From: Patescibacteria group bacterium
Lineage (GTDB): Bacteria > Patescibacteriota > Gracilibacteria > UBA1369
DNA: 64,000 bases
Assembly (NCBI GenBank): GCA_963169655.1
Contig: CAUJCM010000002.1
Location: forward strand, 1,426-65,425
Direction: 5' to 3'
The notes beneath the pieces were generated by a model. That model worked only from the letters and a program-made list of their open reading frames with translations, did no database searches and was not told the DNA's origin. The position numbers were made by a program, and so were the translations under genes. This document shows, in pieces, positions 4,532 to 48,677 of this stretch; the first letter of the stretch is position 1; every line of letters starts with the position of its first letter.

Positions 4532-4554
4532 ATTAAAAATTTAATTTTAAAATT

Positions 4555-17692: not shown

Positions 17693-17707
17693 TAAGATTA
17701 AAAAATT

Positions 17708-25868: not shown

Positions 25869-25897
25869 AAGAGGGCTTAAATTAGCCCTCTTTTTTA
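25869..25897 (+). terminator. Rho-independent terminator after the pilin gene
   Basis: Stem gagggct (25871-77) / agccctc (25884-90), then a T-run at 25891-96. Confidence 0.75.
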
Positions 25898-26009: not shown

Positions 26010-26043
26010 TGTATAGGCGGTTGGGCTTTTTTTGTATAGGCGG
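26010..26043 (+). promoter_or_regulatory. Perfect 11-bp direct repeat TGTATAGGCGG x2 (23-bp register) upstream of the giant gene
   Basis: Copies at 26010-26020 and 26033-26043. They are GC-rich islands in an AT-rich spacer, immediately 5' of the extended -10 element. Confidence 0.6.
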
Positions 26044-26047
26044 AATT

Positions 26048-26056
26048 TGCTATAAT
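26048..26056 (+). promoter_or_regulatory. Extended -10 element TGcTATAAT, candidate promoter of the giant-protein operon
   Basis: TG-N-TATAAT lies 52 nt upstream of the GTG at 26109. The -35 position is a T-run. Confidence 0.45.
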
Positions 26057-26108: not shown

Positions 26109-29100
26109 GTGCAAAAGATTAAAAATAAAATCACAAAATTAATTAATTTAAATTTTAATAAATTAGCAAATACAAGGCATTTTTTATTAAAATTTATTAA
26201 ATTTTTAAATAAAGAAAGAAGTTTTTCTCTTTTAATTACTGCTTTATTTACTTTTAACTTATCAGCTCCAAGTGTTTTAGCCTTTTGGGATAATAATAAA
26301 TCATTAAACTCAAGTCCTTTCAAAACTCAAGTAGCTAAAGCTGCTGAAAGTATTTTTGGTAAATCGGGAGAAATACTACAACAATTTTCTACGAAATCTG
26401 AAGCTTTAAAATATCAACAAAATGCTAAAAGTAAACCACAATTTGATTTAATTGCTATTTTAGTTGATGAAGAAATTACTAAAAATTTAAAAGATTATGA
26501 TGGTTTAATTTCAAGTCATAATCCAAATGTCCCTAATAAACCAGAAGAAGCATATCGTAAGTTAAATGAGAAAACTTTAATGGATAGAATTGAAAGATAT
26601 GCCAAAGACATTCAGGGGATCAACAAAGTAATAGATCCAGTTCCATATCAAAAAACTGTAATTATCAAGGTAAAAAGAGATGAGCCGACTGAAAATATTG
26701 CAATGACTTTAGAAAAACTTTATCGAGAAGGTGATTCTACTTTAAATGAAAATAATAAATTAAGAGGAATTGTGATTATTGGCGAAGTGCCTCTCCCAGT
26801 CGTCAATAAAAATGGAAATCGTTTTGTCAGTTTATTCCCTTATACAGATTTTGACGATCCTTATTATATTTTCGATCAGGAAAGTGGAGATTTTGTTGTA
26901 AATGTGTCTAGTCAAGATCACAATGCTGAGATTTGGCATGGAATAATTGTTCCACCAGTTGATGGGGAAGAAGGAAATAAACTTTTGGCTGAATATTTTG
27001 ATAAAAATCACTTATTTAAAATTGGTGAAAAAGGTTATCAAGATTTTAACAAAGAAATTTTTTATAGTGATTTAAATAAAGAATTTCAATTAATGGGGAA
27101 AGAAGGTCTTCCTGCTTATTATAATTATTTAAAATATTGGGAAGATATCTCTTATTTTAGATTTAATAAAAATTGGCTAAAACTGTTATATGAAAATTCT
27201 TCTTTTGGAGGTGATGAAGGAGATGGAATTGATAATGATGGGGATGGAAAAATAGATGAAGATCCAGTTAATGGATATGATGATGATGGAGATGGGGAAA
27301 ATGGTAGTCCTCTTTTTGGATTAATTAATGGAGTAGATGATGATGGAGATGGAGTAATAGATAACGATGAAGAAGGTGTTTGGGGATTTTGTGGACCAAT
27401 ACCAGCAAAAGGACCTGTAAAATTACAAAATTGTAAAGTTCCAGGAATGCCTTATAAAACAGATAATTTTTATAATACAAAAGCTGGAAGTTATTATAAA
27501 GTTGCTGATGGAATTAATAATAACCCAGAAGAAAACGCTTTAATTGATGAAGGAATTGATGAGGACCCAGGTGATGCTATGAAAGGAATTGATAATGATA
27601 GAGATGGAAGAATTGATGAAGATGGAACAGATGATAATGATGCTGATGGAGATAAAAAAGTGGATGAAGATATGCCAGGAGATATGAATAAAGATGGGTG
27701 TCCAGGAGAATGTGGCGTAGATGAAAATTTAGATTCTATTGATAGCGATAATGATGGTTGGCCAGATGGTTATGAGAAAAAGTATGGGTCAATTAAGATT
27801 GGGGCTTCTCAATTTGGGGATTTGCTATCTGGAAATATGCCAAGTTTTAATACTCCGACTAATCCTCGTGATCCTTTTTCTTTTCCAACTATAGCAATTT
27901 CCTTTCCTGGACCAATTCCTACTATGTTTATTCCAAGATTTATTCCTTGGCCTAATTCTAATGAATGGGTGGATAATAGTATCTCTTTTGATGATGATGA
28001 AGATGGAAAAATAGATGAAGATGGGTTGGATGATAATGATGCAGATGGAGATGGTTTATTTGATGAAGATCCTGGAGACCCACTTGGTAATGACAAAAAA
28101 AACGCTGGCTCCCAAATATCTGAAGGATTACCAGATATTAAGTCAAAAGATGTAATTATGACTTATCTTAAGCAATATAATGAATTGTTTGATAATTTTT
28201 ATGCTGATGTAAATACATGGATAGCTGGGACTGGAAGATATGAAATTTCAGCTCCAAAAGTTGATGGAAGTAATAAATCTGATTTAAGAAGCTTTCCATT
28301 TTTAATTTCTGTAAAAGATGAATTTACAAGACTTTATTTAAAAGCTGTAAATGATGCAATTGAAAAAAGAGTTGATCAATATGTACAGAAACTACAGTAT
28401 GACATCCGCTTAATTAAAGGTTCTAATTTAAGTGGATATATTGTTTTAGATGATAGTTTAGGAATATTTCCTAATCAAAAAATAAAATTTAATGATATTA
28501 ATTTTATAAACTTTGGTTATAAAAATTCTGTATTCGCAAATAAAGTACACACTTTCTTAAATGATCCTATAATTAAAATATTCCTAAAATCAGCTCTACT
28601 AGGTAATCCAAATAAAGATAATATTAAAGATTTAAGAAACGAATTATTAAAAGATATGAAAGGATCAGTGACATCCACTACCCCAATTTATATTAATGGT
28701 AAGCCAATAGATTCTATTACTAATATTCAACAATGTAGCTTATATAGAGGTTCGGAAGGTATTGGAGAACAAAGTCAAATGGTTTATGCCAATACTCTCA
28801 ATGATGTATTTGGAAATTTAAATAAAGAAACTCCTCCAAGTATCCCAGAAAGCTGGAGATCAAAATCTAAAAATGAATTATTAGGAACGAGTGGTGAAGA
28901 TTATAAAAATGGTCTTTTTTATTGGTGGAATAATTCATCAGACTCACCAATGGTGAAATGGCTAAAAAAACAAAAAGCTTTAAACGAATCTTTTGCTGGT
29001 TGTTTTTATGAGAATAGTCAAAATCCAGATAGATGTTATGTAAGTCTTGCCACTCGATATATTTTTAGCTTAGGAGGGGCTATACAAGTTAAAAATATTC

Positions 29101-32100
29101 CTGAAAATTATGTAAGTCATCAAGCATGTTTTGATTTAAAAGAAAAATCAGGTTATGACGCATTTATGATTGATACAAATATTTATCTCGAAGCAATATC
29201 TCAAACTAAATCTCCTGAACAAAAAGAAAAATATGAAATTATCAAACCTAATCCAGCTGATGCATACAAAAAACCAAAAGATATTATATTATTAGATTTT
29301 GGAGATAATGCTCCAAGCGAGTATGAAGTTACTCCTAATAATTACTTACCTATTAATCCTCTTGAAATACAAGCCATACAGCAAAATCCAAATTTTCAGG
29401 CATTCAATATAAATTTGGAGCAAGTATTAAGAGCCTACATGGGAGGGAATAGAGTAGATGATAATGGTAATGGTGTGACAGATGAATTAGCTGAGTCAAA
29501 TATTCAGTTTTTCCCAATTGATGCAAATGGTCAGCCTAACTGGTTTCAAGTTGGAGAACAACTTTTACAAAATACTAGAATTGACGAAGCAGCAACTGAT
29601 CCCAAACTCAAACCTTTAAGATTCTTAAATGGTATTATCCCAGGTACAAAAGAGGTTTATATTAGAGTTCAACCAATTTTTGGTAAAGAAATAAGTTCTT
29701 TAATTTTCCATAAAGAACCAACCATTGATACTTTAGAAGCTCAAATTTATCAACTTGAAAGAGATGATAATGGAGACTTTATAGTAGATAACACTTTAAG
29801 TGATAGGGAAAAAAGAAATATTGGACAATATAAAGTTGAAACTAAAGAAAATCCTAATGGAGATAAAGTTCCTCAAAAACATGGAGTTGCACAAAGTTTA
29901 CCAATTGATAGTCCTCGTTATGTTTCATTTAGAGATTCAAATGGTAATTATCAAAAAATTGTCTATCCAAACGCTTTTCAATCTAAAGATTCGAATGATT
30001 TTAAACAACAATTAAAAGATTTAGAGTTACAACTTGCAAATATTAAAGTAAATCCTAAATATGCAAATATTGGACCAAATTCAATAGATGGATATTTAAC
30101 AGGAGCTTTAGCTGATTTTATTAATAATGATGTTATGAATTCAGCTACTGGAGATATTAGCGTAATTTCTGAAAAGAAATTAAAAGATGCTTATGATTGG
30201 AAAAAAATGGATATTGATGAGAAACATCAATATGCAATATCTCATTATTTAGGACAGGCTTTTACTCCTTTTACACCAAATGTTGAAGCTAATAAGGGAT
30301 ATGAGGTTCTATATTTAAATTCAGCTGGAGATAGTCAAAAACTGTCAATGAAGTTTAATGCTGATATTCCTCCAATACAGCAAAAAACTATGATGGAAGA
30401 AGTAGATTGTACTGATCCACAATTTGCTAAATATGCAATTTGTAAAGATATGGTTAGTGATATGGATGGTTTAAATATTAATATTGAACAAAATAAACAA
30501 ATTAATAATCCAAATAGTGTTTTAAATGGGGGTAAAGGTTCTGGAGGAGGATTAACTCCTGTATTTATTACAGAATGGTTTGCTGCACTTGCAAAATGGG
30601 CGGATGAAACTGCAGAAATTATAAATGGAAAAGATTCATTTAATAGTTGTCCTGCGCCTATATATGATAAAAATGCTGGAACAGAACAAGTTGATTCTAA
30701 TTTGGATAATACAATTCTAGATTTAATGCCTGATTTAACTGGAGGTTCAAATACTACTTATTCAAGTAGCACTGATATTAAGGCAAATACTGTTAATTTA
30801 AAATTAGAAATAGAAAATAATAAGACACTTCTAAGGTCTAGTATGTCAGATCAAGCAAAAATTATAGTGACTGCCTTAAATAAAAATGGACAAATAAATC
30901 GTGCAGATAGTTTTAGCAATGTAAATTTAAATATTACAAATGCTATTGGAAATGGAGATATTATTGAAGTAGTAGGAGAGAAAAGTAAAACTTTAGCTGG
31001 AGGCCAAACTATGTTCATTATTGCTGGTGGAGATGACGAAGGTAGCGTATTAATTAATGCATCTTTAAACGAAGATAACAAAGTTAAGAGTAATAGTGTC
31101 AGTGTCAAAGTTACAAAAGAAGTTATTAAATTATTAGCATTTAGAAGGTTCCAAGCTTATCAATTTACACAAGGAAATGAAGATGGATATACAATTAATG
31201 ATGGTAATGAAGTAGTAGCTGATATTGATCCTAAAACTGGATATATCAATATTTTAAATAAAAATTATCAATTAAAAGTACTCACATCTAAAGCTGAAAA
31301 ACCACTGAGACTTGCAGTTGTTAAAAAAGAAGATCAAAAAGTAATTTCAATACTCTATTTTGTAACAAGTGGAGAAAAAGGAATAACCATAGATGGTCCA
31401 AATGTTGATTATCAAAAAGATTTTGAAAAATTAGAAGGAGTCCATATTAAAGATTTAACTGCAAAAGATAATTTAAGTTTACAAAGTATTGGAGATGAAG
31501 ATCCAAAATTAAAAGGTAATTTATTAATAGTTGATAGTACTGTTAAAGAAAATAAGGGGCGTGTTGGTTTAATAGATAAAAAAGGAAATTTATTTACTGA
31601 ATTAGATGTACAAATTAAAGAAGGAGATAAAAATGAACCTGTAATTTGGGAAATATTAGGTAACGATGGAAGGCCCGCAATGGAAATGTATATTGCAGCT
31701 AAATTTAAAGAAATTACTATCTTGCCTTATGAAGATATTAAAGAGTTCTTTGCAAAACTTTCAAATCAACTACTCAATACTCAGTTTGCTAAATTAATTA
31801 AAACTGCTCATGCACAAGAAAAAACAGAAAATGAAGAAAAGGCTGATACGAATGATATTAAGAAAAAAATTACTGATAGTGATGGAGATGGGTTAAATGA
31901 TTTAGAAGAATTAATTATTGGTATTGATCCATATAAATTAGATAGTAATGGTGATGGAATTAATGATTTAGATTCTTTATATCAAAATATTGATCCAATT
32001 AATAAACAAAAAACTCCTTTATTTGCTGATATTAATGAAAAAGATAATGGATTTAAAGAAATAGTAAAATTATTCCGTAGGGGAATTTTTGTGATGGATG

Positions 32101-41100: not shown

Positions 41101-43646
41101 GACCTTATAAAGATTTAAATGATATGGAAATAATGTTAAATATTGTTGATGAGTCAGGTAATATTGGGCAACAAAAAATCACTATTCACGTTTATGTTCC
41201 TTCTATAACATTGGATGATAGCTCAAGTAATTTAGAAGCAGATCCTGATGGAAATAATGGAAAGAGTGTGTCAGGAAGTATTGATCCAAAAGAAAGTAAT
41301 ATTCCAATTGCTATTATTCGAGATAGGAATGGAATTAAAGAAATTATTATAACCAAAAAAGCTAATAGTAAAGGAAAATACTTAACTGACGAACAAGGTA
41401 AATTTGATATTTCAGACTTAAATTTAAATGATAAAGTAGTTATTAAAAATGCTAATGGCCAAGTAGTTGCAGAAATAGATCCAGAAACAGGAAGAATTAT
41501 TTTAATTGATCCAACTTATTCGATTGAGGTTCTACCTGCTCAAGAACCAATATTGCCAACTCGAGTTGTAGTAAGAAACCCTCAAAAAGTTATAGTAGCT
41601 ACATTATTTATTGTGTCAGATGCTAATACTGATGTGACAATTGATGATCAAAATGTAATTTATAATAGGAATACAGTTTTACTATTTAATGGAGTTCACT
41701 ACAAAGATATTCAGCAAGAAAGTTTAGGATTTGAATTAAAACAAATCCCTGCAGATAGTAATAAATTTGCTGGAGGTATTGAAATGATTGAAAATAATAC
41801 TTTAAAGAGGGTATTTGTGCTTGATTCAGGTGGTAATTTCTATGTTTATGATCCAAGAATACAATTAAAATTGAAATCAGTAGATAATTTGGAAGATCCA
41901 ATGATTATCCAAGTTTTATGGCAGAAGGAAGATGGTAATAAAGAAGTTATTGGTGAATTTTATGTATCATTTAGCTCTAAAAATCCATTACAAATATTAG
42001 ATGCTGAAAAATATAACGCTTTTGTTGAAAATCCTAATGTTTTTGGACCTGAATTTGATACGGATATGGATGGTATGCCAGATTTATGGGAGATGCAATA
42101 TGGACTTGATTATAATAATCCTTTAGATGCTAAAGAAGATCCAGACCAGGATGGTTTAACTAATTTAGAAGAATATTTAGCCGGAACTAACCCACTTTTA
42201 GCTGATAGTGATGGAGATGGATATTTAGATGGCTTTGAAGTAATAATGGGTAAGGATCCTTTAACAAAAGTAATCTCACCATTTGCCGATGTGGATCCTA
42301 ATAACCCTTATTATGAATCAATAATTAACTTCTATCAAAGAGGTATTCTTGCTGGAATTCCTGCTGGCAATCAAACTAACTTTGGATTTAAAGAACCTAT
42401 TAATCGTGCGGAATTTGCTAAAGTGATGTTAGACACTTTCTGTATTGTACCAAGGCCTGAAGCTTATCAAGCTCCTGGAGTATTTTATGATATTCCATAT
42501 AAGGAAGGTCAAAATCCTTGGTATTTTACAGCTACTAAAGAAGCTTATTTCCAAGGATTTATTACTGGTTATAGAGGTGAAATAGATATAAGAACTGGTC
42601 AAACACCTTTTGCTCCAAATGAAACCATTACAAAAGCTGAAGCAGTAAAAATTATTTTAGAAGCTTTAGAAAGAGAAAGAATTATTGATCTATCTAAAAT
42701 ACCTGAAACTGAACCTTACTATATTCCTTATATGGCTGCTGCCCAAAACTTAGAACCTTATTTAATTAAAGGTAAAACTTTAAAAAGTAACTTTATTTTA
42801 ACAAAGGAAGAGGCCTCTAGACCTGGAGAAGAAATTAATCGTGGGGAATTTATAAAATTAGCAGATAGAGTCTTAACTGCTTTAGATTGTTCTGTTATTG
42901 ATACAGACCTTGATGGAATGCCAGATTTCTGGGAACAAAAAAATGGATTAAATTATTTAGATCCTAGTGATGCAGATTTAGACCCAGATCAAGATGGTTT
43001 AACTAATTTACAAGAATATAAATTTGGAACTGATCCAAATAATGCTGATACAGACGGTGGTGGTATCAAAGATGGAATAGAAGTTTTAAAGAGGAGGACT
43101 AATCCTTTAGATCCTAAAGATGATTATCTAGATAGTGATGGGGATGGAATTTCAGATGATGAAGAAATTAATAAATATGGAACTGATCCATTTAATTCTG
43201 ATACCGATGGTGGTGGGGTAGATGATTATACTGAAATATTTATTAAAGGTACTAACCCATTAAATCCACTTGATGATTTAGATAGCGATAATGATGGATT
43301 ATCAAATTATGAAGAAATTAATATTTACCATACTGATCCATTTAATCCTGACACTGATGGTGGTGGAGTTAAAGATGGAGTAGAAGTTTATAGAAATTCT
43401 GATCCTTTAAATCCAAATGATGATTTAATAGATCCAAGAAAAGATTTGGGACCAGGAGTTTATGTGATACCTCCAACTTGTTCAACATGTCCTTGCGAAT
43501 CAGCAATTGACCATACAGCTGACCTGATTCCAGGAGATAAGATTTTAGGAATTATTTCAAATGATGATAATTCACAAATATTTAGCCAAAGTAATTTAAT
43601 AGAAATAAAAGAAATAAATAAGAGTAAACCAAAAGAAGTAAAATAG
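26109..43646 (+). CDS. Giant (5,845 aa) multidomain cell-surface protein with SLH, Asp-rich Ca-binding-type, Ig-like, FG-GAP-like, DUF11-like and PKD-like modules
   Basis: One uninterrupted ORF with GTG start and TAG stop. It has an N-terminal hydrophobic signal/anchor (FSLLITALFTFNLSAPSVLAF), and the domain motifs were read by eye (see sub-features). Confidence 0.85.
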   Translation: MQKIKNKITKLINLNFNKLANTRHFLLKFIKFLNKERSFSLLITALFTFNLSAPSVLAFWDNNKSLNSSPFKTQVAKAAESIFGKSGEILQQFSTKSEALKYQQNAKSKPQFDLIAILVDEEITKNLKDYDGLISSHNPNVPNKPEEAYRKLNEKTLMDRIERYAKDIQGINKVIDPVPYQKTVIIKVKRDEPTENIAMTLEKLYREGDSTLNENNKLRGIVIIGEVPLPVVNKNGNRFVSLFPYTDFDDPYYIFDQESGDFVVNVSSQDHNAEIWHGIIVPPVDGEEGNKLLAEYFDKNHLFKIGEKGYQDFNKEIFYSDLNKEFQLMGKEGLPAYYNYLKYWEDISYFRFNKNWLKLLYENSSFGGDEGDGIDNDGDGKIDEDPVNGYDDDGDGENGSPLFGLINGVDDDGDGVIDNDEEGVWGFCGPIPAKGPVKLQNCKVPGMPYKTDNFYNTKAGSYYKVADGINNNPEENALIDEGIDEDPGDAMKGIDNDRDGRIDEDGTDDNDADGDKKVDEDMPGDMNKDGCPGECGVDENLDSIDSDNDGWPDGYEKKYGSIKIGASQFGDLLSGNMPSFNTPTNPRDPFSFPTIAISFPGPIPTMFIPRFIPWPNSNEWVDNSISFDDDEDGKIDEDGLDDNDADGDGLFDEDPGDPLGNDKKNAGSQISEGLPDIKSKDVIMTYLKQYNELFDNFYADVNTWIAGTGRYEISAPKVDGSNKSDLRSFPFLISVKDEFTRLYLKAVNDAIEKRVDQYVQKLQYDIRLIKGSNLSGYIVLDDSLGIFPNQKIKFNDINFINFGYKNSVFANKVHTFLNDPIIKIFLKSALLGNPNKDNIKDLRNELLKDMKGSVTSTTPIYINGKPIDSITNIQQCSLYRGSEGIGEQSQMVYANTLNDVFGNLNKETPPSIPESWRSKSKNELLGTSGEDYKNGLFYWWNNSSDSPMVKWLKKQKALNESFAGCFYENSQNPDRCYVSLATRYIFSLGGAIQVKNIPENYVSHQACFDLKEKSGYDAFMIDTNIYLEAISQTKSPEQKEKYEIIKPNPADAYKKPKDIILLDFGDNAPSEYEVTPNNYLPINPLEIQAIQQNPNFQAFNINLEQVLRAYMGGNRVDDNGNGVTDELAESNIQFFPIDANGQPNWFQVGEQLLQNTRIDEAATDPKLKPLRFLNGIIPGTKEVYIRVQPIFGKEISSLIFHKEPTIDTLEAQIYQLERDDNGDFIVDNTLSDREKRNIGQYKVETKENPNGDKVPQKHGVAQSLPIDSPRYVSFRDSNGNYQKIVYPNAFQSKDSNDFKQQLKDLELQLANIKVNPKYANIGPNSIDGYLTGALADFINNDVMNSATGDISVISEKKLKDAYDWKKMDIDEKHQYAISHYLGQAFTPFTPNVEANKGYEVLYLNSAGDSQKLSMKFNADIPPIQQKTMMEEVDCTDPQFAKYAICKDMVSDMDGLNINIEQNKQINNPNSVLNGGKGSGGGLTPVFITEWFAALAKWADETAEIINGKDSFNSCPAPIYDKNAGTEQVDSNLDNTILDLMPDLTGGSNTTYSSSTDIKANTVNLKLEIENNKTLLRSSMSDQAKIIVTALNKNGQINRADSFSNVNLNITNAIGNGDIIEVVGEKSKTLAGGQTMFIIAGGDDEGSVLINASLNEDNKVKSNSVSVKVTKEVIKLLAFRRFQAYQFTQGNEDGYTINDGNEVVADIDPKTGYINILNKNYQLKVLTSKAEKPLRLAVVKKEDQKVISILYFVTSGEKGITIDGPNVDYQKDFEKLEGVHIKDLTAKDNLSLQSIGDEDPKLKGNLLIVDSTVKENKGRVGLIDKKGNLFTELDVQIKEGDKNEPVIWEILGNDGRPAMEMYIAAKFKEITILPYEDIKEFFAKLSNQLLNTQFAKLIKTAHAQEKTENEEKADTNDIKKKITDSDGDGLNDLEELIIGIDPYKLDSNGDGINDLDSLYQNIDPINKQKTPLFADINEKDNGFKEIVKLFRRGIFVMDANKFVRPKDKITREEFVKLDLGGICVICDRFSEKIKSAVWQVYSNNPFPDLDIGNDYKYCIAEGRNRGIISGYKAYSNAGYFVPKANISRAEATKVILETARQQIESFPDFQVNEKLAGKPWYYTYVLTAQKEGLYPKGYFQSLDSLKPEQFKAYFDNQIALSNLGLPGGSLNSQFITWLEQPITRVEFAIMVSQFTDKYDCLSTDSDMDGIPDNFEKYIYGTNPNLADTDKGGVNDGIEILRGTNPLDPSDDQKIEKEEIPVINENDDPDEDGLTNKEEAKYDTNPMDPDTDHGGVKDGIEVLLGIDPLNPEDDNDFGKGSGLENQNTDGAYLSGINIVPKIIYTTIDNDDENQINTEETDRIPADGESTLYIRASIYSSDGKIKADDNESIINFSFKNPSDFENATLNPLSVKVKNGVAETTLTAKKKTGLPIVIAGIQNENVPSDEQVVEIYALEPAIISLDTKTPIIPSGGQSNAEIKAVLKDRNGNIANSENYLVTFDIDDDTNEDQDRASLDYSKDENKEIDGVQQSTVTGELSIKLKSGINPETVKVKATYQGNIGLTEPTDVNDLNAELLNEDAQIFKPKELNSEITINTRDDLNIVIEKDKSELKANNADIANLTVRIADKNGNVLNDFQGSITAQLLDSRLGTLIDDKGQESQSLIRLNLINGLAKLKVRSSFIAGDLKILMSTDGIASSTVQLETYAYAPYKIELESDDMEVSTGKNNIYYLKAKVYDGMGNFVSRDNSTQIVFNINPETQKFGKLMSANSVKVKNGEALVQFMPTNITGPIRFTAKANKLMEGSLEVNSVYHLEGKELRDIQPKILYANLLGSAFGDVTSKDYFGGWFVFSGKVESAATLITDPKPKMRLVEVLPTGKIKLTGQGDLEIRLIPTSTDNSPVKQQAFDYDNNKQVMEVMSILSPLSKTKLIYSESDLDLVGNTVNVLNKVPDNENYTWENDTEKVDILKNGSLIASIKKDGRIKLFNPNTSLTVNESSNDSNINWNLNDSSLVIANIIISSETQENVKLLENKEPLPNTVGVYIRKLANLPNRSYVTNFSGNSTSNKRGYYYTDDTKELNKNQSPGLSYNSLESADKEDGVGLRGDNKNVLLFAGGNTVGESNLNYASDAGVVLGDPTIRINNKKDPDSIVQDDVLYSNTGFTKDLGEMIYSGNKPIREILQIDYDNDGDKDLMITYSDGEIRLLENINKGKRFEDKGIFLNFPNGILSIVVTDINNDGWEDLIVATSDSCKVGEVCVDAYLNNHTNFVRHNLNLEGYDSKNKVYEMKVADMNQDSYPDLIISDDFGNIKIFYTKNGELNKGGQLIGNLGVKINQNDNLRNEVFVNYDGMSDKPLGSIDDKNYQEIVVKGNTASEDQKLLFKSLSVDNILKVSSIKQAKDITEPFNMLAAGDQVEYTIKIANIGLKEIKSLKIADLAPAPIELDQDSIKCLDCKNEINLIPTGQSLRPYIITGIDLPAKSTRTITYKTTVKKLPRVKLMVGQNLSKDYPIQDGYPDIMATPENNPTGKAVYYYSISKDSITGQIKYGQYTTPDPNAGVKPGYNQMTDQDGNKVGPDLSLFEKKNADGIPIAVQHYMDYGTFPGMSMGDVVDGGGVYTDSNGDTISTLPGVGPVYDKLGSTLDKAADKIESAINALTCTSGCIPMPINFAFLAPGPINVMGIPSGFDPGLPIFAWGVPSIVPVWPPSPFQASTGGRIYVSPTLTGKVAMAICTGPYLVGYGPVPGNCYTIVLPVNPLGELCDKIADTMSGMLNGAISMVNDTAGNIGLSTDGSMSTMPTNDGSNYTGGFEASNSMGNYRMSVSAKTNIRIPSFPSVLTDWLDNQTQEIINKVTDLPDIHILLPDMLSPFVDGSKQDKLNDLTEGSSKVGSEPMSAKGIRGVLQTINEIPLIAIEPKEVIIFIPSLTPGEIDRFVNDAKQWVQDEKSELNRALNVWKCGPFKETVIGPDGQKVPGYIDENGNTVYGDRPYAKICDIITVDMTELIQTVEKNIEIINSYKNLPRQILAWRNMLTKYVTQIICYIDIILDFFIGNIAKWLDQIYGWIDAYNNALEMISSWQVLIDLVIEYQTSCDTCTSSRFSLLELVLRVFTFIPSPPIIPFPKLPDIYIDLSQVQMGIKILWPDLKFRPLKLVLPRLPRIALPDLPTLNFRLPSIGLLPEIAIFPELPDLPPLTLPQLPNLPPPPKIPAFSASFKATINILQKIFKILCLIKKGFIPTPEMNLKTTIEHMTERGLDPLLPIDLGLGFQMPAISYNYMDRMVLTAKVNLQTDFSAIYDIMKYFADKINLLPTNFVNNVNDITKTINRGLDDTVNSINQGLNDAVKVNFNWNKPNQFQIPEIESDGADMRTVLDNNPDILKELNQISPEIGSLVSALANSTKEMEIDRIKYQEIINRDFQDIHLVASSMTISPTDPLMNKSIEDLRNFDIQKIMAVLGPGFEETKQLARLRSNLFAFVEENQKLDDLANTNDLEKFATLMAQAPSISDVLIKSGYSSEGTMIADDKNKKLFAKTPSIDDIIRNSGLPASTQSKPITKGMFIYNEKEKFNEKLIDFEEELSLPTTMNFIDVDQDKDTDLIYSFGPNIYLKNNYKFNTNIGSFYGGIPQYHELIDFMPARGSVTGFSSTFNGNKNLEVKWNKANGSDIYGYEMIVGKRLGGSSNKGVTNDVNSSGLQKFVYLNNKEITGGLLTNSLLQPDSNSYKFPISKLYELSANNVNGEIRFTGPKQEIIVANKDKIKVKGGIQIYASKDSILKVWLNGESKADKKLQANELIEMPRNFGGNLEIQLNSGSITLIDTNEIVKNQKLVDGNKIDIKTKYTSINNGTAIIKLPGDSYTRVDAGQSLEINILDNPKKPQVNLNLENGFYYAVIRSFNKTGFRSLISQSILLWPNICNDRQLPMPVAGPDEREVAIFKTLEIDASKSFDAFGSVVSYYIDTDLKVDSDGDGDTTNDKNLGRDLDPNVDSDGDGIPYNDLDDPILYVGPYKDLNDMEIMLNIVDESGNIGQQKITIHVYVPSITLDDSSSNLEADPDGNNGKSVSGSIDPKESNIPIAIIRDRNGIKEIIITKKANSKGKYLTDEQGKFDISDLNLNDKVVIKNANGQVVAEIDPETGRIILIDPTYSIEVLPAQEPILPTRVVVRNPQKVIVATLFIVSDANTDVTIDDQNVIYNRNTVLLFNGVHYKDIQQESLGFELKQIPADSNKFAGGIEMIENNTLKRVFVLDSGGNFYVYDPRIQLKLKSVDNLEDPMIIQVLWQKEDGNKEVIGEFYVSFSSKNPLQILDAEKYNAFVENPNVFGPEFDTDMDGMPDLWEMQYGLDYNNPLDAKEDPDQDGLTNLEEYLAGTNPLLADSDGDGYLDGFEVIMGKDPLTKVISPFADVDPNNPYYESIINFYQRGILAGIPAGNQTNFGFKEPINRAEFAKVMLDTFCIVPRPEAYQAPGVFYDIPYKEGQNPWYFTATKEAYFQGFITGYRGEIDIRTGQTPFAPNETITKAEAVKIILEALERERIIDLSKIPETEPYYIPYMAAAQNLEPYLIKGKTLKSNFILTKEEASRPGEEINRGEFIKLADRVLTALDCSVIDTDLDGMPDFWEQKNGLNYLDPSDADLDPDQDGLTNLQEYKFGTDPNNADTDGGGIKDGIEVLKRRTNPLDPKDDYLDSDGDGISDDEEINKYGTDPFNSDTDGGGVDDYTEIFIKGTNPLNPLDDLDSDNDGLSNYEEINIYHTDPFNPDTDGGGVKDGVEVYRNSDPLNPNDDLIDPRKDLGPGVYVIPPTCSTCPCESAIDHTADLIPGDKILGIISNDDNSQIFSQSNLIEIKEINKSKPKEVK
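27208..28094 (+). repeat. Giant protein: first cluster of Asp-rich DxDxDGxxDxD repeats (thrombospondin type 3-like, Ca-binding type)
   Basis: Examples are DNDGDGKIDEDP, DDDGDGVIDNDE, DNDRDGRIDEDGTDDNDADGDKKVDED, DSDNDGWPDGYE and DDDEDGKIDEDGLDDNDADGDGLFDED. Confidence 0.6.
31875..33050 (+). other. Giant protein: TSP3-like repeats, then two SLH-like domains, then further TSP3-like repeats
   Basis: DSDGDGLNDLEE..DSNGDGINDLD comes first. SLH-like FADINEKDNGFKEIVKLFRRGIF...ITREEF and FPDLDIGNDYKYCIAEGRNRGIISGY...ISRAEA follow. The segment ends with DSDMDGIPDNFE...DTDKGGVNDGIE...DPDEDGLTNKEE...DTDHGGVKDGIE. Confidence 0.6.
33188..34535 (+). other. Giant protein: at least four tandem bacterial Ig-like (Big/invasin-type) domains
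   Basis: A recurrent pattern IPADGESTLYIRASIYSSDGK / IPSGGQSNAEIKAVLKDRNGN / LKANNADIANLTVRIADKNGN / YYLKAKVYDGMGN, each followed by a V.F stretch. Confidence 0.55.
35643..36585 (+). other. Giant protein: FG-GAP/VCBS-like repeats followed by a DUF11-like conserved repeat domain
   Basis: DYDNDGDKDLMITYSDGEIRLL, DINNDGWEDLIVATSD and DMNQDSYPDLIISDDFGNIKIF come first. GDQVEYTIKIANIGLKEIKSLKIADLAP...TRTITYKTTV follows. Confidence 0.5.
38555..38725 (+). repeat. Giant protein: proline-rich LPxLP tract inside the unassigned core
   Basis: The encoded sequence is LPRLPRIALPDLPTLNFRLPSIGLLPEIAIFPELPDLPPLTLPQLPNLPPPPKIP. Confidence 0.7.
40848..41195 (+). other. Giant protein: PKD-like domain with embedded Asp-rich loops
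   Basis: PVAGPDEREVAIFKTLEIDASKSFDAFGSVVSYYIDTD...ITIHVY resembles the PKD pattern AGPD...V.LDAS.S.D..G.I.SY.W. Confidence 0.5.
42054..43428 (+). other. Giant protein C-terminal block: TSP3-like repeats, then SLH-like domains (42282-42890), then an extended TSP3-like array
   Basis: DTDMDGMPDLWE..DPDQDGLTNLEE..DSDGDGYLDGFE comes first. SLH-like FADVDPNNPYYESIINFYQRGILAG...INRAEF and FYDIPYKEGQNPWYFTATKEAYFQGFITGY...ITKAEA follow. Five or more DTDGGG/DSDGDG units end the block, and the nucleotide-level repeats are visible. Confidence 0.65.
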
Positions 43647-43663
43647 GTATAATATAAATATCA

Positions 43664-44317
43664 ATGAAAAATAAAAAAAATAAAAATAGCTTTCAACAAC
43701 TAAGTATTACAATTTCTTTGATGATGCTGTTATTTATTGGAAATAGCCTTGGTAATATTGGTAATATTTCTTTGGCTCAAGAAGATACACAAAGTATTTC
43801 TACTGTTACTCCAGTGGAAGGAAATCAAATACAAATTAATAAAGAAACTCAAGTAGCTTGCCAAACTAAAATTGCTGAATGGGCGGAACCTGAATTTGAA
43901 AAATATAAAGTTTTTATGGAAAACCATTTTAGCAATAAAAGTAAGACTTCTTCTTTAATGGAAGAGGCTATGAATAGATACGAAAAATTTAAGTATGATA
44001 TTTCTGTAAAATATTCTGAATTTGTAACATTTCACATCAATCAAGCTGGTATATCAGGTGCAAATGTGGGAGTACAATTAGTAGGTTTATCTCAATGTGA
44101 ATCATTAGTTCGAGAATATATTCAAAATGCAAATAAACTATTGCAAATGAGAGCTATTACAACTGCAAAGATTAAAAAGGCTTCTGTTTTTGTTGAAAAA
44201 TATCAACAAATAAATTCAAAACTAAGATCTTTAAATGATGATTTTATTAAGATGGTTGTAAATATCTCTACTTTTGATCAAAAACTTCCTTGTTATCTAA
44301 AATCTTGTGTACAATAA
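43664..44317 (+). CDS. Secreted hypothetical protein 1 of 4 (217 aa, 4 Cys, ends ..LPCYLKSCVQ)
   Basis: Signal peptide ending SLAQ. The start lies 17 nt after the giant-gene stop, and there is no recognisable domain. Confidence 0.7.
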   Translation: MKNKKNKNSFQQLSITISLMMLLFIGNSLGNIGNISLAQEDTQSISTVTPVEGNQIQINKETQVACQTKIAEWAEPEFEKYKVFMENHFSNKSKTSSLMEEAMNRYEKFKYDISVKYSEFVTFHINQAGISGANVGVQLVGLSQCESLVREYIQNANKLLQMRAITTAKIKKASVFVEKYQQINSKLRSLNDDFIKMVVNISTFDQKLPCYLKSCVQ

Positions 44318-44318
44318 A

Positions 44319-45329
44319 ATGAAAAATAAAATTATTTATCTATCAGCTAGTTTACTCATAATTTTGAGTGGGGTTATGCTTTTTGGTTCTTATAGAGGGA
44401 TAGCTCAAAACAATGAAAATATTCCTCCAGTAAATTCTGCTAATTTTATTAATGCTTTTTGTTTTGATGGACAAATAGATCAAATGGATATTAAAGATTT
44501 ACAAGAGATGTATCTTGAGAAGACAAATGAATATTTTAATCAAAAAATTAAAGATGTTTTGCAGGACGAAAGAGATGAGGCTCCTACTCCAAATTTAGAT
44601 GAATATGACAAACTAGGTGGGAATCTCTGTACTAGTAGCGGAGATAGTGATTTAACTTGTAAATCTATAGCTGTTTGTAATCCAAACAAACAAGTTGATG
44701 AAAACCAAGATTATGCAAATCATCCTTATTGTGTTGGAGTTACTTTACTTGGCTTGCCTCCTGCTAAATTTGATCATTATAATTATCAAAGATTACAAGA
44801 AATCGAACAATTAAAATACAGTTATTTTTGTTATTATTCAGCTTTGAATTTAAAAAGAGATGCTATTTATGATGGGACTCCACAAGGAATTTTAGATAAA
44901 TGTAATACTGACAATCCATTTAAAAATGAAAAAGTATGTACCTTACAATCTCAAATCTCACAAGAAAATGATTCCGAGAAAAAAGAAGAATTGAAAGGAC
45001 AATTAAATCAAGAATTAACAAAGCAAATGGTTGGGTATGGATATATGGATGACGATACTCCTGATCCTGGAAATAGTATTATTAGCTATATGAATTACAC
45101 AGCTAATAGAATAAATTTTATAGACGATGAAATTGAGAAAGCTAAGCTTGCATTAGACCAAACTTTAGATGCTTATAGTCAATTAAAAACTTCATGGCAA
45201 TTACATATTAGATATATAGATATTTTTAATAATTTAGTAAAATACAGAGATCAATTGGTTAATATTCGACAACAGACTGATGTATTTCCAATGAAATTTG
45301 TAGATGCTACAACTACTAGATGTCTTTAA
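44319..45329 (+). CDS. Secreted hypothetical protein 2 of 4 (9 Cys, ends ..TTTRCL)
   Basis: ATG at 44319, in the TAAAATG junction, gives MKNKIIYLSASLLIILSG..GIAQ. It is preferred over the GTG at 44307. Confidence 0.7.
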   Translation: MKNKIIYLSASLLIILSGVMLFGSYRGIAQNNENIPPVNSANFINAFCFDGQIDQMDIKDLQEMYLEKTNEYFNQKIKDVLQDERDEAPTPNLDEYDKLGGNLCTSSGDSDLTCKSIAVCNPNKQVDENQDYANHPYCVGVTLLGLPPAKFDHYNYQRLQEIEQLKYSYFCYYSALNLKRDAIYDGTPQGILDKCNTDNPFKNEKVCTLQSQISQENDSEKKEELKGQLNQELTKQMVGYGYMDDDTPDPGNSIISYMNYTANRINFIDDEIEKAKLALDQTLDAYSQLKTSWQLHIRYIDIFNNLVKYRDQLVNIRQQTDVFPMKFVDATTTRCL

Positions 45330-47152
45330 TGAAAAAATTAATTTACATAATTGGTTTTCTAATGTTTATGAGCGTAATAATTCGCCCAGGCGGAATGATT
45401 GACTTAAAAAATGTCTTTGCAGCTGATTCTGAAATCGAAGACTGCGTTCCAAGCAGGAACTTGGGATGTAGAGAAAGCCAATTAATTAAAAGAGTATTAA
45501 AAGATAATCCAAATAAAAACTTAGATTGGGGGCAAAGTTTTGGATCAACAGATCCAAATATTATTGGAGATAATCTTTACTTAATTATATATAAAGATAT
45601 TAATTTAAACTCACTTGATGAAGCAATTAATGCTACTGCTGATCAATATGGAATGCCTGTAGAAAGAATGTCTGAAATATTATACGGTGATATTAAACCG
45701 ATTCTTGAAAGAAACCCATTAATGACTATTGAAAGAGCTACAGAAATTTATATGCAAATAATTGCTACTTATGAAGATAAAAAAGATAGTGCAGAATTAC
45801 AAAATTATTTAAATTCAAAAATTCTATCTAATGAAATGTTTGCAGATGGAAAACTAGAAAACTCTGGTTTTGATTTAGTTGTAGATTTAAATAATATAGA
45901 AACTATTTTATTCCAAAGAGCAGAACCAATTACTTATGGAGCAAACTATGTTCCTAGTGCTAATACTGGAGATAATAATGATGATTCAAAATTAAAAGAT
46001 GATATTATTGATTTACCAATTGATCTGTCAGGGGATATTTCTTTAAATAATGGTTCTTCCAATGGACAATCTAGTAATAATCAACAAAAAACTAATCAAA
46101 ATCCTTTTAAACAAGCTGAAGAGCTAAAAAAATCTATTTTTGATAAAGGAATTAATCCTAATATTTGTTTTACCACTCAAGACCTAGATAAACCATTAGA
46201 TAAATTGTCTAAAGATTTACAAGGTAATAAAAAGCTAAAAAGTAATTTTGATGCTGAAAAAGATTTAGACAAAATAAATAATAGCCAAAACAATCAGAGG
46301 GGGGATAATGTTAATGATTTAAGTAATGTAGGACCAGATTTACCAATTGATTTAATTCCAACGGATAGTCAAATCCCAAAAGATGTTAAATCGGCACCTC
46401 CAGGAGATTATAGTAAAGCTCCTTTATGTGAAGATATTATTTGTATAACTTTTGAAACTTTTTATAAACCAGCTACCCCAAGTTTTACAAAGACAGATAA
46501 CTGTATTCAATGTCATGTTCAATATATTAATGAAAGTCTACAAAAGACTGTAAGTCATAGCTTAATTCCTGCAAAAGCTACTGGAAATCTTGGAGAAAGT
46601 GCTTTATGTAAGAATGCAGCTGCTGCTTCACTTTCTGCAATTGGTATGAATATTAGTGTAAATATGGTGCCAGTTATTACACCTCCCAAAAATGATTTAA
46701 TGAGTGTAGGAAATATTAATGATGAATGGAATAAATATGCTCAAACAAATGGATTTTGGAATTATGGTGAAAAACAAAGAAGAGAAGCTGATGCTAAAAA
46801 GAAAAATGGCCCAGTAGACTATTCCCCTATTTCAAGTGATATGGAAAGAATGTTGGTAGTTGAATTATTTAATGCTGGTGATAATTCTTCAATTGATGAG
46901 GTAATGTCACAAGCATCAAGTAGCTATGAAAAATTAAAAGTTCAAGCTGCGCAAGAACAATTAGTTGTGGAAATAGCTCAAGATGCCTATGGAGAAATTA
47001 ATACTTATGATGCTTTAGAGGATGAAATGAAGCAAATGAATGGATTTTTTAAAAACTTTAAAGATCAAATGCGTACTTTGTATGAAGATGTTCCTGGATT
47101 AAATTCAACAAAAGCTTGTACTAACTTAAATAATAAAAGGGCTTGTACATAA
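45329..47152 (+). CDS. Secreted hypothetical protein 3 of 4 (10 Cys, ends ..KACTNLNNKRACT)
   Basis: ATG at 45329, in a TAATG overlap, gives MKKLIYIIGFLMFMSVII. An alternative ATG lies at 45320. A central Asn/Asp/Gln-rich low-complexity region is present. Confidence 0.7.
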   Translation: MKKLIYIIGFLMFMSVIIRPGGMIDLKNVFAADSEIEDCVPSRNLGCRESQLIKRVLKDNPNKNLDWGQSFGSTDPNIIGDNLYLIIYKDINLNSLDEAINATADQYGMPVERMSEILYGDIKPILERNPLMTIERATEIYMQIIATYEDKKDSAELQNYLNSKILSNEMFADGKLENSGFDLVVDLNNIETILFQRAEPITYGANYVPSANTGDNNDDSKLKDDIIDLPIDLSGDISLNNGSSNGQSSNNQQKTNQNPFKQAEELKKSIFDKGINPNICFTTQDLDKPLDKLSKDLQGNKKLKSNFDAEKDLDKINNSQNNQRGDNVNDLSNVGPDLPIDLIPTDSQIPKDVKSAPPGDYSKAPLCEDIICITFETFYKPATPSFTKTDNCIQCHVQYINESLQKTVSHSLIPAKATGNLGESALCKNAAAASLSAIGMNISVNMVPVITPPKNDLMSVGNINDEWNKYAQTNGFWNYGEKQRREADAKKKNGPVDYSPISSDMERMLVVELFNAGDNSSIDEVMSQASSSYEKLKVQAAQEQLVVEIAQDAYGEINTYDALEDEMKQMNGFFKNFKDQMRTLYEDVPGLNSTKACTNLNNKRACT

Positions 47153-48336
47153 TGAAACTAAATAATAATAAAATTTGGATTTTAAATTCTATTGTTCTTA
47201 CAATAACTTTTATGATTCTATTAAGCGGGTCAAATAATGATGTTAGTTATGCTCAGAAAAGTGTAGATAATAATTCAGGATCAGGAAAACAATTATTCTG
47301 TACTAGAGATTTTAGTAATTTTATAAATAACGGATTGGACTTTAATGGGGAAGGATTTATTGACTATTGGAATGATATTTTAGTTATTTATAATACAAAT
47401 TACTGCCAATATTCTGATATTGATAGTTTATTAAATAGAATTGATAAAGCCAGGAAACAAATAAGACAAGCCTTTTATGTTTGTGATACTGCTACAGCAA
47501 CTAGAGTAGCCAGTCAATATTACCAATTATCTGCAGAACTCTATTATTTAAGACATTTTGTAAATATAACTAATCCACCAAATCCAAAGGCTAGCGAGAA
47601 AGAAAAGGCATTAAATGTTATAAAAGATAGTAGTGTGCGCAAAAAATTTATGAATATGTTCGTTAATGATTTAAAATATTTTGATGCTGATACTGGAAAT
47701 AGAGTATTTGAACAATTAGAAGCAAAGTATGCAAGTAAAATTGAAGCTTATCAAAATTGTTCTGACCCTAACTTAGGAATGTTAACAGATAGAATAAATA
47801 ATATTAAAAATACGCTTAACCAACTCAAATTACTTGGTGATAGATTTCAAGCTAAAGTAGAAGCAAGAAATAATGCTCGTGATAAAAGATTAAAAGAAAA
47901 TCCAGGTATTTTATCAGCATTTTCCGCTCATAATGCAGCTGAATTTTTTAATAGCGTCTTTAATATAAGATTAAATAATGAACCAATTAAGGAAACTACT
48001 GTCTGGGAACAAATTTCTAACACTTATAAACAAAATAAACTTGGAGGTAATTTAACTGCTGAGAAAGATAATATTGAAGTGCCAAGAGGTATTAAATTTA
48101 ATGATATTGCTGATGATTTATCTTTAATAAAAAGGAGAGATATGGATGTGGATATGGATATTAAGTTTGTGACAAGCTATGACTTAAAATACAGGCAAGT
48201 TGGAGGGATGGGACTAGATAAAGCTAAAGTAAATTTAGATGATTTGAAAGTAATTCTGACTGATACTTTCCAACCTCTTTTAGAAATTAAAGGATGTACG
48301 GCTAATATTGTTGGAAAACAGTGTGGAGAACGCTAA
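47152..48336 (+). CDS. Secreted hypothetical protein 4 of 4 (6 Cys, ends ..GCTANIVGKQCGER)
   Basis: ATG at 47152, in a TAATG overlap, gives MKLNNNKIWILNSIVLTITFMILLSG..SYAQ. It is preferred over the TTG at 47143. Confidence 0.7.
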   Translation: MKLNNNKIWILNSIVLTITFMILLSGSNNDVSYAQKSVDNNSGSGKQLFCTRDFSNFINNGLDFNGEGFIDYWNDILVIYNTNYCQYSDIDSLLNRIDKARKQIRQAFYVCDTATATRVASQYYQLSAELYYLRHFVNITNPPNPKASEKEKALNVIKDSSVRKKFMNMFVNDLKYFDADTGNRVFEQLEAKYASKIEAYQNCSDPNLGMLTDRINNIKNTLNQLKLLGDRFQAKVEARNNARDKRLKENPGILSAFSAHNAAEFFNSVFNIRLNNEPIKETTVWEQISNTYKQNKLGGNLTAEKDNIEVPRGIKFNDIADDLSLIKRRDMDVDMDIKFVTSYDLKYRQVGGMGLDKAKVNLDDLKVILTDTFQPLLEIKGCTANIVGKQCGER

Positions 48337-48450: not shown

Positions 48451-48467
48451 CCCCGCTGTTAGCGGGG
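48451..48467. terminator. GC-rich hairpin between convergent genes (candidate bidirectional terminator)
   Basis: Stem ccccgct / agcgggg with a 3-nt loop. On the minus strand it is followed by attgtggttttta. The U-run is weak on the + strand. Confidence 0.4.
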
Positions 48468-48497: not shown

Positions 48498-48677
48498 TTA
48501 TCTTGCTACTAAAGTGAGAATAGATCCTTTTACTCTGTCTTTCCATGCAAGATACGATTTTTTTCTTGATTTACCTGTAATATGTTCTAGGGCCTCAATA
48601 TTACTTGTTTTACAGTGAGGACAATTTTCTTTTTTGGTGGAGATTGATACTCCGCAATTGAGGCAATTAAATATCAT
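48498..48677 (-). CDS. Small zinc-ribbon protein (59 aa), absent from the supplied ORF track
   Basis: Hand translation gives MIFNCLNCGVSISTKKENCPHCKTSNIEALEHITGKSRKKSYLAWKDRVKGSILTLVAR*. It has CxxC-N11-CxxC, and its ATG lies 5 nt after the stop of the upstream HTH gene. Confidence 0.6.
   Translation of the reverse strand: MIFNCLNCGVSISTKKENCPHCKTSNIEALEHITGKSRKKSYLAWKDRVKGSILTLVAR

Follow-up and report, generated by a model that had tools for sequence, protein, structure and literature searches.

The giant gene and its four partners

The stretch of DNA analysed here, hereafter the window, is 64,000 nucleotides (nt) long (contig CAUJCM010000002.1, positions 1,426 to 65,425; G+C content ∼30%) and comes from an assembly labelled Patescibacteria group bacterium. 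Positions 26109 to 48336 of the window hold five consecutive genes on the forward strand: a very large one, whose product of 5,845 amino acids (aa) we call the giant, and four smaller ones, designated D1 to D4. The giant gene (26109-43646) is a single open reading frame (ORF) from GTG 26109 to TAG 43644-46 with no internal stop, as claimed in a previous analysis made from the letters alone (the sequence-only reading). It is followed by D1 (43664-44317, 217 aa), D2 (44319-45329, 336 aa), D3 (45329-47152, 607 aa when counted from the MKKLIY start shared by the orthologs) and D4 (47152-48336, 394 aa). Base-by-base reading confirmed the four junctions exactly: a 17-nt spacer between the giant and D1 (ATG 43664), TAAAATG between D1 and D2 (1 nt, ATG 44319), and TAATG (−1 nt) both between D2 and D3 (ATG 45329) and between D3 and D4 (ATG 47152). 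Abutting gene starts were also observed in locus L002, a relative whose D1-D4 proteins are only 45-52% identical to those of the window. The public gene call for D3 uses a later start than a 610-aa variant of the protein.

Several observations bear on the reality of so long an ORF. The sequence of the window recurs identically in an independent Logan assembly, D1, D4 and the neighbouring pilin gene are each found on six contigs, and the locus is carried by records titled as chromosomes (OY782391.1, OY970195.1 and OZ246407.1). The repeats that the giant gene contains are short and have diverged (identity of at most 80%, the largest tandem array being 150 nt×2.6 copies at 70%), and no long or near-identical DNA repeats were found in it. 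Given these repeats and the collinear conservation of the gene in relatives described below, we concluded that the ORF is not an assembly chimera.

The unit lies downstream of type IV pilus genes, all on the forward strand. These are pilB, for the extension ATPase (18400-19707, T2SSE PF00437, E 2e-126), pilC, for the platform protein (19718-21028, T2SSF PF00482, E 1.6e-50), and a gene for a 165-aa type IV pilin with a GFTLIE class III signal (25350-25847, N_methyl 5.5e-9, T2SSG 3.2e-5). Just 5′ of pilB (15827-18400), two genes encode a 621-aa protein and a 230-aa protein that has a transmembrane helix at its N-terminus. Neither product matches Pfam, and both are candidate pilus assembly-platform proteins. 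A predicted intrinsic terminator (25869-25892) stands 3′ of the pilin gene, with hairpin and T-run equivalents in loci L038, L039 and L041. Further down, a candidate extended −10 element, TGCTATAAT (26048-26056), was read from the sequence; lacking a −35 match, it escaped the simple sigma-70 scan. Like elements (GCTATAAT, TGGTATAAT and TGCTATAAT) occur 40-60 nt 5′ of the giant start in L038, L040 and L041. A direct repeat of TGTATAGGCGG, with copies at 26010 and 26033 (26010-26043, start-to-start distance 23 nt), is in contrast absent from the orthologous intergenic regions of all five loci L038-L042, so that an operator role is unsupported. Thus, of the promoter with direct-repeat operator that had been proposed for the unit, the candidate promoter holds, its TGnTATAAT-type −10 element being kept in relatives, and the operator does not. 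Rfam and tRNA scans of the window gave no match.

All four downstream genes encode proteins with signal peptides, as had been predicted. The N-termini of D1-D4 are hydrophobic segments ending in AxA-type sites followed by Q, D or E, as for signal peptidase I (SPase I), and the proteins would be Sec-exported and largely helical. The description of them as cysteine-rich was overstated, with 4, 9, 10 and 6 cysteines in D1, D2, D3 and D4 (1.5-2.7%); what stands out is that the positions of these residues are conserved, above all near the C-terminus. Each of the four proteins has a conserved cysteine or cysteine pair at most 3 residues from its C-terminus across orthologs, in the motifs KLPCYxKxC (D1, which ends KLPCYLKSCVQ in the window), FIDATTTKC (D2, ending FVDATTTRCL, consensus FIDATTTKC[LT]), KACx8C (D3, ending KACxxLxxKxxCT) and Cx8C (D4, ending CTANIVGKQCGER). 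Together with the CxxCPC mini-domain of the giant (see below), these C-terminal cysteines could form intermolecular disulfides, or else be part of an unrecognised C-terminal processing signal.

No match to D1-D4 was obtained in Pfam, NCBIfam, PHROGs or PADLOC, and profile searches against PDB sequences returned coiled-coil or chance matches only. Nor was paralogy detectable by hhalign, either among the four (probabilities ≤8.4%) or between them and 300-aa tiles of the giant (≤2.6%). D3, with 42 full-length homologs, none of which has a name, has a helical domain at its N-terminus, connected through a low-complexity segment to a C-terminal domain containing DNCIxCH (residues 393-399 of the 610-aa variant). 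Of 28 orthologs, 24 have CIxCH and four lack it, the motif being lost in one subclade. This putative site resembles those of c-type haem attachment or of CxxC redox chemistry; no cytochrome family match was found for D3 in Pfam or NCBIfam, and no thioredoxin-fold or other family match. D1-D4 have no N_methyl match, and they and their orthologs lack the G|F/M-T-L-x-E pilin motif; both are present in the neighbouring pilin. The suggestion that D1-D4 are subunits of a fibre finds no support: they are not pilins, are not detectably paralogous and are unlike any part of the giant.

Domain content and conservation of the giant protein

The giant was scanned with Pfam both as a whole and in ten overlapping 650-aa tiles, and SLH, TSP3, Big_1 and FG-GAP families were matched. 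Its first 59 residues (26109-26285) are a signal peptide or N-terminal anchor (hydrophobic stretch at aa 41-59, followed by VLA|F), in agreement with the sequence-only reading, and its orthologs have ordinary Sec-type N-termini; the sequence signals point to export through Sec. Next comes an alpha/beta region, the N-domain (aa 110-370, 26436-27218), which is the best-conserved part of the family. Its AlphaFold2 (AF2) model (pLDDT 71.7, pTM 0.71) is a three-layer alpha/beta sandwich, for which a Foldseek search of the PDB gave nothing significant (best E 0.05, TM<0.3). By sequence, the N-domain has no PDB match, no credible Pfam match even at E≤1, and no PHROGs match. A likeness to peptidase C25/caspase, which would go with a caspase-hemoglobinase fold and a His/Cys dyad, is not supported: caspase-9 was reached at E 0.3 only, and the domain has no conserved cysteine.

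Five clusters of Asp-rich, calcium-binding-type repeats had been proposed. Four of them are TSP3_bac clusters, at about aa 1912-1960, 2200-2310, 5310-5380 and 5598-5790, the last one with six repeats. The fifth, N-terminal one (aa 370-680, 27216-28148) consists of DxDxDG-type repeats that correspond to DNA repeat families D2 and D5 (families of repeats, not the proteins of similar name); it has no Pfam match and varies among orthologs (occupancy 0.39-0.71).

SLH motifs normally come three in tandem. The two SLH blocks that had been predicted are confirmed by Pfam matches above the gathering score, and non-covalent anchoring to the wall is implied: triad 1 covers aa 1972-2169 (32022-32615; PF00395 at aa 1972-2013, 4.2e-7) and triad 2 covers aa 5385-5584 (42261-42860; PF00395 at aa 5391-5437, 6.4e-8). 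Each block also aligns over ∼125-200 aa with a three-SLH protein encoded in the window. The triads are embedded in two larger modules, aa 1697-2318 (31197-33062; TSP3, SLH triad, TSP3) and aa 5114-5784 (41448-43460; TSP3, SLH triad, six TSP3 repeats), which are ∼29% identical over 722 aa and represent an ancient internal duplication.

Between the two modules, four Ig-like domains occupy aa 2340-2810 (33126-34538; Glyco_hydro2_C5 1.3e-20 in three stretches, Invasin_D3 7e-9, Big_1 5e-6). With a weak match at aa 1566-1653, Pfam finds at least five such domains, where at least four had been announced. They are followed by FG-GAP, integrin-alpha-type beta-propeller repeats (aa 3180-3370, 35646-36218; PF13517 4.7e-12, PF01839 1.8e-9), a region from which a PDB sequence search reached integrin alpha-6 (8.4e-6). 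FG-GAP was thus the one clear case among three further module types proposed earlier: DUF11 is borderline (aa 3406-3490, 36324-36578; PF01345 5.6e-5, 23.9 bits for a cutoff of 24.6), NCBI having labelled one ortholog fragment a “DUF11 domain-containing protein”, and PKD had no Pfam match at E≤0.1.

The C1 core (aa 3980-4310, 38046-39038), second best-conserved region of the family, is made up of a helical bundle, an SCDxCT motif, a Pro-rich LPxLP segment and an amphipathic helix, and its alignment (A6) has 26 invariant columns. It has no credible PDB or Pfam match and no PHROGs match, and an NCBIfam scan of the whole giant placed no match in either the N-domain or the C1 core. A homolog search with aa 3561-4560, in which low-complexity Pro-rich words were probably dominant, returned two proteins only. 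Three further unassigned tiles searched against PDB as single sequences gave integrin alpha-6 as their only match, through the FG-GAP part. The protein ends with a mini-domain, CxxCPC...HxAD..PGD (aa 5783-5845, 43455-43643), found in all 22 ortholog C-termini inspected. In total, ∼3,300 aa are left without assignment (aa 1-1560 and 3500-5300), so that the earlier estimate of more than 2,500 was right in kind and too low.

Over its whole length, the giant is collinear with 22 orthologs of at least 4,900 aa. Mean identity among these is highest in the N-domain (58% at aa 201-300), then in the C1 core (45-56% at aa 4000-4300); the FG-GAP region, aa 4900-5200 and the C-terminal SLH/TSP3 module come next. 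The close relative P0045 differs little from the giant, with 86% identity, 8 gap positions over 5,845 aa and no hypervariable block, and the closest homolog of D3, P0002, is 84% identical to it. Compared with L002, identity is 60-62% for the C-terminal half of the giant, 45-52% for D1-D4 and 82% for UvrA. The giant of L002, a relative found in OY782391.1, is also called at exactly 5,845 aa, which may be a coincidence, others ranging from 3.5 to 6.1 thousand residues. Such conservation is not the behaviour of a fast-evolving adhesin.

The unit and its neighbours in related genomes

A pattern scan covering one genome per GTDB species yielded 33 loci. All are metagenome-assembled genomes labelled Candidatus Peregrinibacteria, Peribacteria or “Gracilibacteria”, or bear broader labels (Patescibacteria group, Candidatus Altimarinota, “bacterium”), and the source of the window is a bacterium of the Candidatus Peregrinibacteria/Peribacteria, within the candidate phyla radiation (CPR). 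An exhaustive phmmer search with aa 690-1500 of the giant returned 106 cluster representatives, nearly all of them giants of 3.5-6.1 thousand residues matched at the same relative position.

The five genes are a conserved unit and are syntenic elsewhere: in a tblastn comparison with the window proteins, the order giant-D1-D2-D3-D4 on one strand was found at 26 of 40 related loci, and it is retained down to 22% identity in D3. Most of the other 14 loci are on truncated contigs or are too divergent for detection with single sequences. With profile hidden Markov models (HMMs), D1-D4 were also recovered in L041 and L042; in L039 and L040, where the giant is present, neither D1-D4 nor the HTH gene described below was found in the 7-10 kb of downstream flank available.

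Two small reverse-strand genes converge on D4, an HTH_17 DNA-binding gene of excisionase/MerR-like type (48683-49078, HTH_17 3.3e-14) and a 59-aa ORF with a CxxC...CxxC zinc ribbon (48498-48677). A GC-rich hairpin, CCCCGCTGTTAGCGGGG (48451-48467), lies between the convergent units and is scored as a terminator on the reverse strand. The HTH_17 gene is found 3′ of D4 nearly everywhere, even in L041 and L042, whose next gene is not uvrA, and it is missing from the two loci devoid of D1-D4, L039 and L040. The 59-aa ORF, which usually accompanies it, has the same place in L002-L004 and L041. The HTH_17 product may regulate the operon.

The association with pilus genes proved stronger than the sequence-only reading, which placed the unit downstream of the pilin gene and near pilB and pilC, had stated. 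Among the 80 loci of a metagenome scan with the N-domain, a pilin-like gene was found upstream of the giant, on the same strand and within 4 kb, at 60 of the 61 loci with at least 1.5 kb of upstream sequence. Where the upstream sequence reached 6 kb, 33 of 36 loci had pilB/pilC, and where the flank reached 9.4 kb, 29 of 31 had pilB. Homologs of the 621-aa and 230-aa proteins preceded pilB in the same direction at 18/31 and 23/31 metagenome loci, the usual co-directional order being the 621-aa protein, the 230-aa protein, pilB, pilC, pilin and giant. The pilin gene is also just 5′ of the giant at all five loci fetched through full-length orthologs (L038-L042); this adjacency is kept in L039 and L040 despite rearrangement of both flanks, and toxin-antitoxin pairs (PemK-type, HicA-type) stand between the two genes at L040:9258-9861 and L042:3679-4238. 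Some related loci have two or three pilin-like genes upstream. Adjacency to pilin is the most persistent neighbour relation of the giant. The wider region (miaA, rplJ, rplL ... uvrA) is syntenic too, with rplJ/rplL upstream at 19 of 31 loci and miaA at 13 of 31.

A profile of the C1 core also matched 27 “proteins” of only 180-600 aa. Two contigs carrying them, L043 and L044, were inspected and consist of runs of small ORFs on the same strand, which are fused by TGA read-through into frames of 11.8 kb (L043:2234-14062) and 13.7 kb (L044:128-13804). The fused frames have the module order of the giant, N-domain, FG-GAP and C1 core, and for this reason they are giant orthologs of UGA-recoded relatives to which the wrong, standard code was applied. 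Public gene calls made in this way split such a giant into 10-20 small “hypothetical proteins”, and one of these records is labelled Candidatus Peribacteria. Directly 3′ of the L043 giant stand four ORFs with signal peptides and cysteines, the last of which is D3-like (E 2.6e-10) and has no CIxCH. The two recoded giants gave no SLH, TSP3 or Ig-like match, and no pilin match was found upstream of them. The core of the family is thus made of the N-domain, FG-GAP and C1, to which the SLH/TSP3 modules are lineage-specific additions.

A proposed surface complex acting with the pilus, and its alternatives

Peregrinibacteria are CPR bacteria that have not been cultured and are believed to live on other cells. 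The locus, which closes the pilus cluster in nearly all the Peregrinibacteria genomes sampled, is a candidate apparatus for cell contact in these ultra-small organisms, which probably depend on hosts. The reading that we favour, with a probability of about one half, is that the giant and its partners would form a complex anchored to the wall at the cell surface and cooperating with the type IV pilus when another cell is contacted. The five genes would make up the end of a conserved cluster of the Peregrinibacterial chromosomal core, in the order platform genes, pilB, pilC, pilin, giant and D1-D4. Sec would export the giant, and the two SLH triads would pin it non-covalently to the cell wall, where it would display the calcium-binding TSP3 repeats, the Ig-like spacers, the FG-GAP propeller, the N-domain and the C1 core. 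D1-D4 would most likely assemble with it, possibly through disulfides, into a surface complex of fixed stoichiometry. The two could plausibly share the work, the pilus reaching out and retracting and the anchored complex holding or processing the contact. In favour of such a complex are the intact ORF, the coupled junctions and the abutting gene starts kept in L002, as well as the SLH, TSP3, Ig-like and FG-GAP matches, the gene order of 26 of 40 loci, the four ORFs behind the L043 giant and the adjacency to pilin. There are also precedents, in that large non-pilin beta-propeller proteins of Saccharibacterial pilus loci have been proposed as adhesins (PMC11623550) and giant membrane proteins of Vampirococcus as host-attachment factors (PMC8080830). 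The sequence-only reading had imagined a giant adhesin or fibre; surface and adhesion-type modules are indeed there, and the adhesive or fibrous role follows from domain types only.

A number of results weigh against this reading. With a terminator of its own behind the pilin gene and a −10 element of its own ahead of the giant gene, the two would be on separate transcripts. Conservation of the pilus neighbourhood may in part be a matter of general synteny in a stable genome, since rplJ/rplL and miaA are also upstream. As L039 and L040 have the giant without D1-D4, the partnership is not obligatory in cis. D1-D4 are devoid of pilin signals, and the AF2 model of D3, built on a 26-sequence alignment, has a pLDDT of 48 and is unusable for a fold search. 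Finally, even conservation with no variable cassettes is unusual for a host-recognition adhesin.

This last point leads to the first alternative, that of a structural envelope apparatus, in which the giant would be a scaffold embedded in the wall or S-layer, for instance a collar or portal of the pilus or an organiser of the envelope, with D1-D4 as ring or connector subunits. Conservation and housekeeping setting would suit a structural apparatus under constraint no less well than an adhesin specific to a host. The gene is near-universal in the clade and closely follows the last of the pilus assembly genes, in a core housekeeping region; the giants of close relatives share 86% identity, differ by only 8 gap positions and have no hypervariable segment; conservation is best in the two cores of no known family, including the Pro-rich LPxLP segment typical of wall-spanning regions; and two SLH triads suggest a fixed, wall-bound geometry. 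Yet Ig-like, FG-GAP, DUF11 and TSP3 modules characterise adhesins rather than any known conduit. No likeness of the giant to secretins, PilP/Q/TsaP or S-layer lattice proteins was found in the Pfam and NCBIfam scans, a protein of 5,845 aa is unlikely as a high-copy lattice subunit, and the recoded loci L043 and L044 have neither an upstream pilin match nor SLH matches. We regard this alternative as possible, with odds of one in a few. Equally tentative is a broader proposal, that the giant and D1-D4, possibly regulated by the HTH_17 and zinc-ribbon proteins, are an unrecognised, lineage-defining envelope machine physically coupled to the pilus, which would serve Peregrinibacteria and their recoded relatives as an organelle of host contact or uptake. 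If this were true, the N-domain, the C1 core and the four partners would represent new protein folds or families.

Under a second alternative, the giant would be an independent wall-anchored adhesin, its place next to the pilus genes a relic of historical synteny in a small genome that rearranges slowly, and D1-D4 would be dedicated extracytoplasmic folding or maturation factors, D3 for example performing thiol-disulfide chemistry with its CIxCH. The separate terminator of pilin, the promoter element of the giant gene and the conserved rplJ/rplL and miaA neighbours all agree with the first half of this proposal. Adjacency to pilin, found at 60 of 61 loci, nevertheless outlasts the other neighbours, flank rearrangements and toxin-antitoxin insertions. 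As for maturation, a CxxC-containing motif in 24 of 28 D3 orthologs and the conserved cysteine motifs of the giant, SCDxCT and CxxCPC, would be in keeping with it, but CIxCH is missing from four orthologs and from the recoded D3-like protein, and D3 matches neither the thioredoxin fold nor another family. We consider the proposal doubtful.

Slightly less probable still, and in our view unlikely, is a third alternative modelled on PilY1, with the giant as a pilus-tip adhesin and D1-D4 taking the place of the four core minor pilins in a priming or tip complex. The resemblance is one of plan. As in a minor-pilin/PilY1 operon, four small proteins accompany a large, Sec-exported, calcium-binding propeller protein in a pilus locus, and no minor pilin genes are visible in the window. 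PilX1 and PilX2 of Saccharibacteria, moreover, also lack prepilin signals (PMC11623550). With the PilY1/PilC family and PilX1/PilX2 of TM7x, the giant shares large size with non-prepilin, Sec-type export, a beta-propeller, calcium-binding motifs and a pilus-locus setting with few companion genes. However, it is 4-5 times larger, has two SLH triads and ∼3,300 aa without known homolog, and its companions are not pilins: D1-D4 have signal peptides of SPase I type and no N_methyl or GFTLIE signal, and the major pilin is the only one adjacent. Whole-protein and tiled scans with Pfam or NCBIfam gave no match to a PilY1 or Neisseria PilC domain in the giant, whose propeller is of the FG-GAP type. Two SLH triads tethering the protein to the wall are hard to square with an extending filament, and the two or three pilin-like genes of some loci mean that minor pilins may exist elsewhere.

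An artefact (assembly chimera, collapsed repeat or pseudogene run) can be put aside as having a negligible probability: all that speaks for it is the prior suspicion raised by a 17.5-kb ORF from a metagenome, and it is contradicted by the identical sequence in the independent Logan assembly, the six contigs each for D1, D4 and pilin, the collinear orthologs of 4.9-6.1 thousand residues in many assemblies, the chromosome-titled records and the lack of long or near-identical repeats in the gene. Three other candidates were rejected. For a polymorphic toxin (Rhs/CDI/MafB), the C-terminal 60 aa are conserved in 22 of 22 orthologs, the downstream genes encode conserved secreted proteins and are not immunity-like, and Pfam scans of the giant matched no toxin domain. 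For a sortase-assembled pilus, none of the five C-termini has LPXTG with a hydrophobic tail, and the window has no sortase gene. For an RTX adhesin secreted by a type I system, no HemolysinCabind or RTX match was found in the Pfam scans of the giant, no type I secretion genes are in the window, and the protein has an N-terminal signal instead.

Coming back to the surface complex that we favour, we compared it with known systems. The statement that no described system has such a composition stands, as no characterised one was matched in family, PDB or literature searches; the latter returned no description of the pilin-giant-D1-D4 locus, of the two conserved cores or of the four partner families. 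SLH-anchored and S-layer-associated proteins of monoderms share the signal peptide, the SLH triads and other SLH genes nearby, but the giant differs from them by its size, its four-partner operon and two triads that arise from an ancient duplication and are placed internally and near the C-terminus. Adhesins of the LapA, SiiE and MpIBP type have in common with it thousands of residues, Ig-like spacers, Asp-rich calcium-binding repeats and retention at the surface, whereas the giant has no RTX, no type I secretion genes nearby and no near-identical array, and combines a Sec signal with a fixed collinear mosaic. The likeness to integrin alpha and FG-GAP (VCBS) proteins, repeats with calcium-binding loops, concerns only ∼200-400 of its 5,845 residues.

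Closest in taxonomy are giants of the same broad Gracilibacteria/Absconditabacteria/Peregrinibacteria group. In Vampirococcus, giant DUF11/integrin membrane proteins, reaching 4,163 aa in Vampirococcus lugosii, have been proposed as host-attachment factors (PMC8080830), and Ca. Peribacter riflensis is described in generic terms as having “large extracellular proteins” (PMC4736985). These proteins resemble the giant in domain types and proposed role and may include orthologs of it; the papers stay generic and contain neither the pilin-giant-D1-D4 locus nor the two cores and four partners. In a survey of proteins larger than 5,000 aa, Peregrinibacteria were among the most enriched bacterial phyla, and none of their giants had a COG function (PMC11573180). 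As each related locus examined carries one giant, the locus may explain part of this enrichment. It provides a giant protein with a context, namely the last place in a pilus cluster and four coupled secreted partners, and makes the N-domain, the C1 core and D1-D4 concrete targets for cryo-electron tomography, proteomics and structure prediction. It also reveals that public annotation of the UGA-recoded relatives shatters the giant ortholog into dozens of “hypothetical proteins”.

Other genes of the window were also inspected. No csaB, a gene expected together with a pyruvylated secondary cell-wall polymer where proteins are anchored through SLH domains, was found among the genes of its 64 kb. 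Two further SLH proteins are encoded in it, from which it follows that the organism uses SLH anchoring. One of them, a three-SLH protein of 471 aa (5742-7157, forward strand), abuts a 395-aa DsbA/thioredoxin-like protein (4555-5742, forward strand); such an extracytoplasmic oxidoreductase would be compatible with disulfide formation in exported proteins. The other (22707-23738, reverse strand) is inserted between pilC and pilin together with two secreted proteins of no known family, of 492 aa (21115-22593, forward strand) and 458 aa (23821-25197, reverse strand), which are weak paralogs (24% over 218 aa, E 6e-7). This insertion is found only in the close relatives L045 and L046, pilC being directly followed by pilin in most relatives. 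Lastly, Pfam gave nothing at E≤1e-4 for four uncharacterised ORFs on the reverse strand, three of which are large, at 8913-11639 (908 aa), 57097-60879 (1,260 aa), 60935-63277 (780 aa) and 63282-63968 (228 aa).

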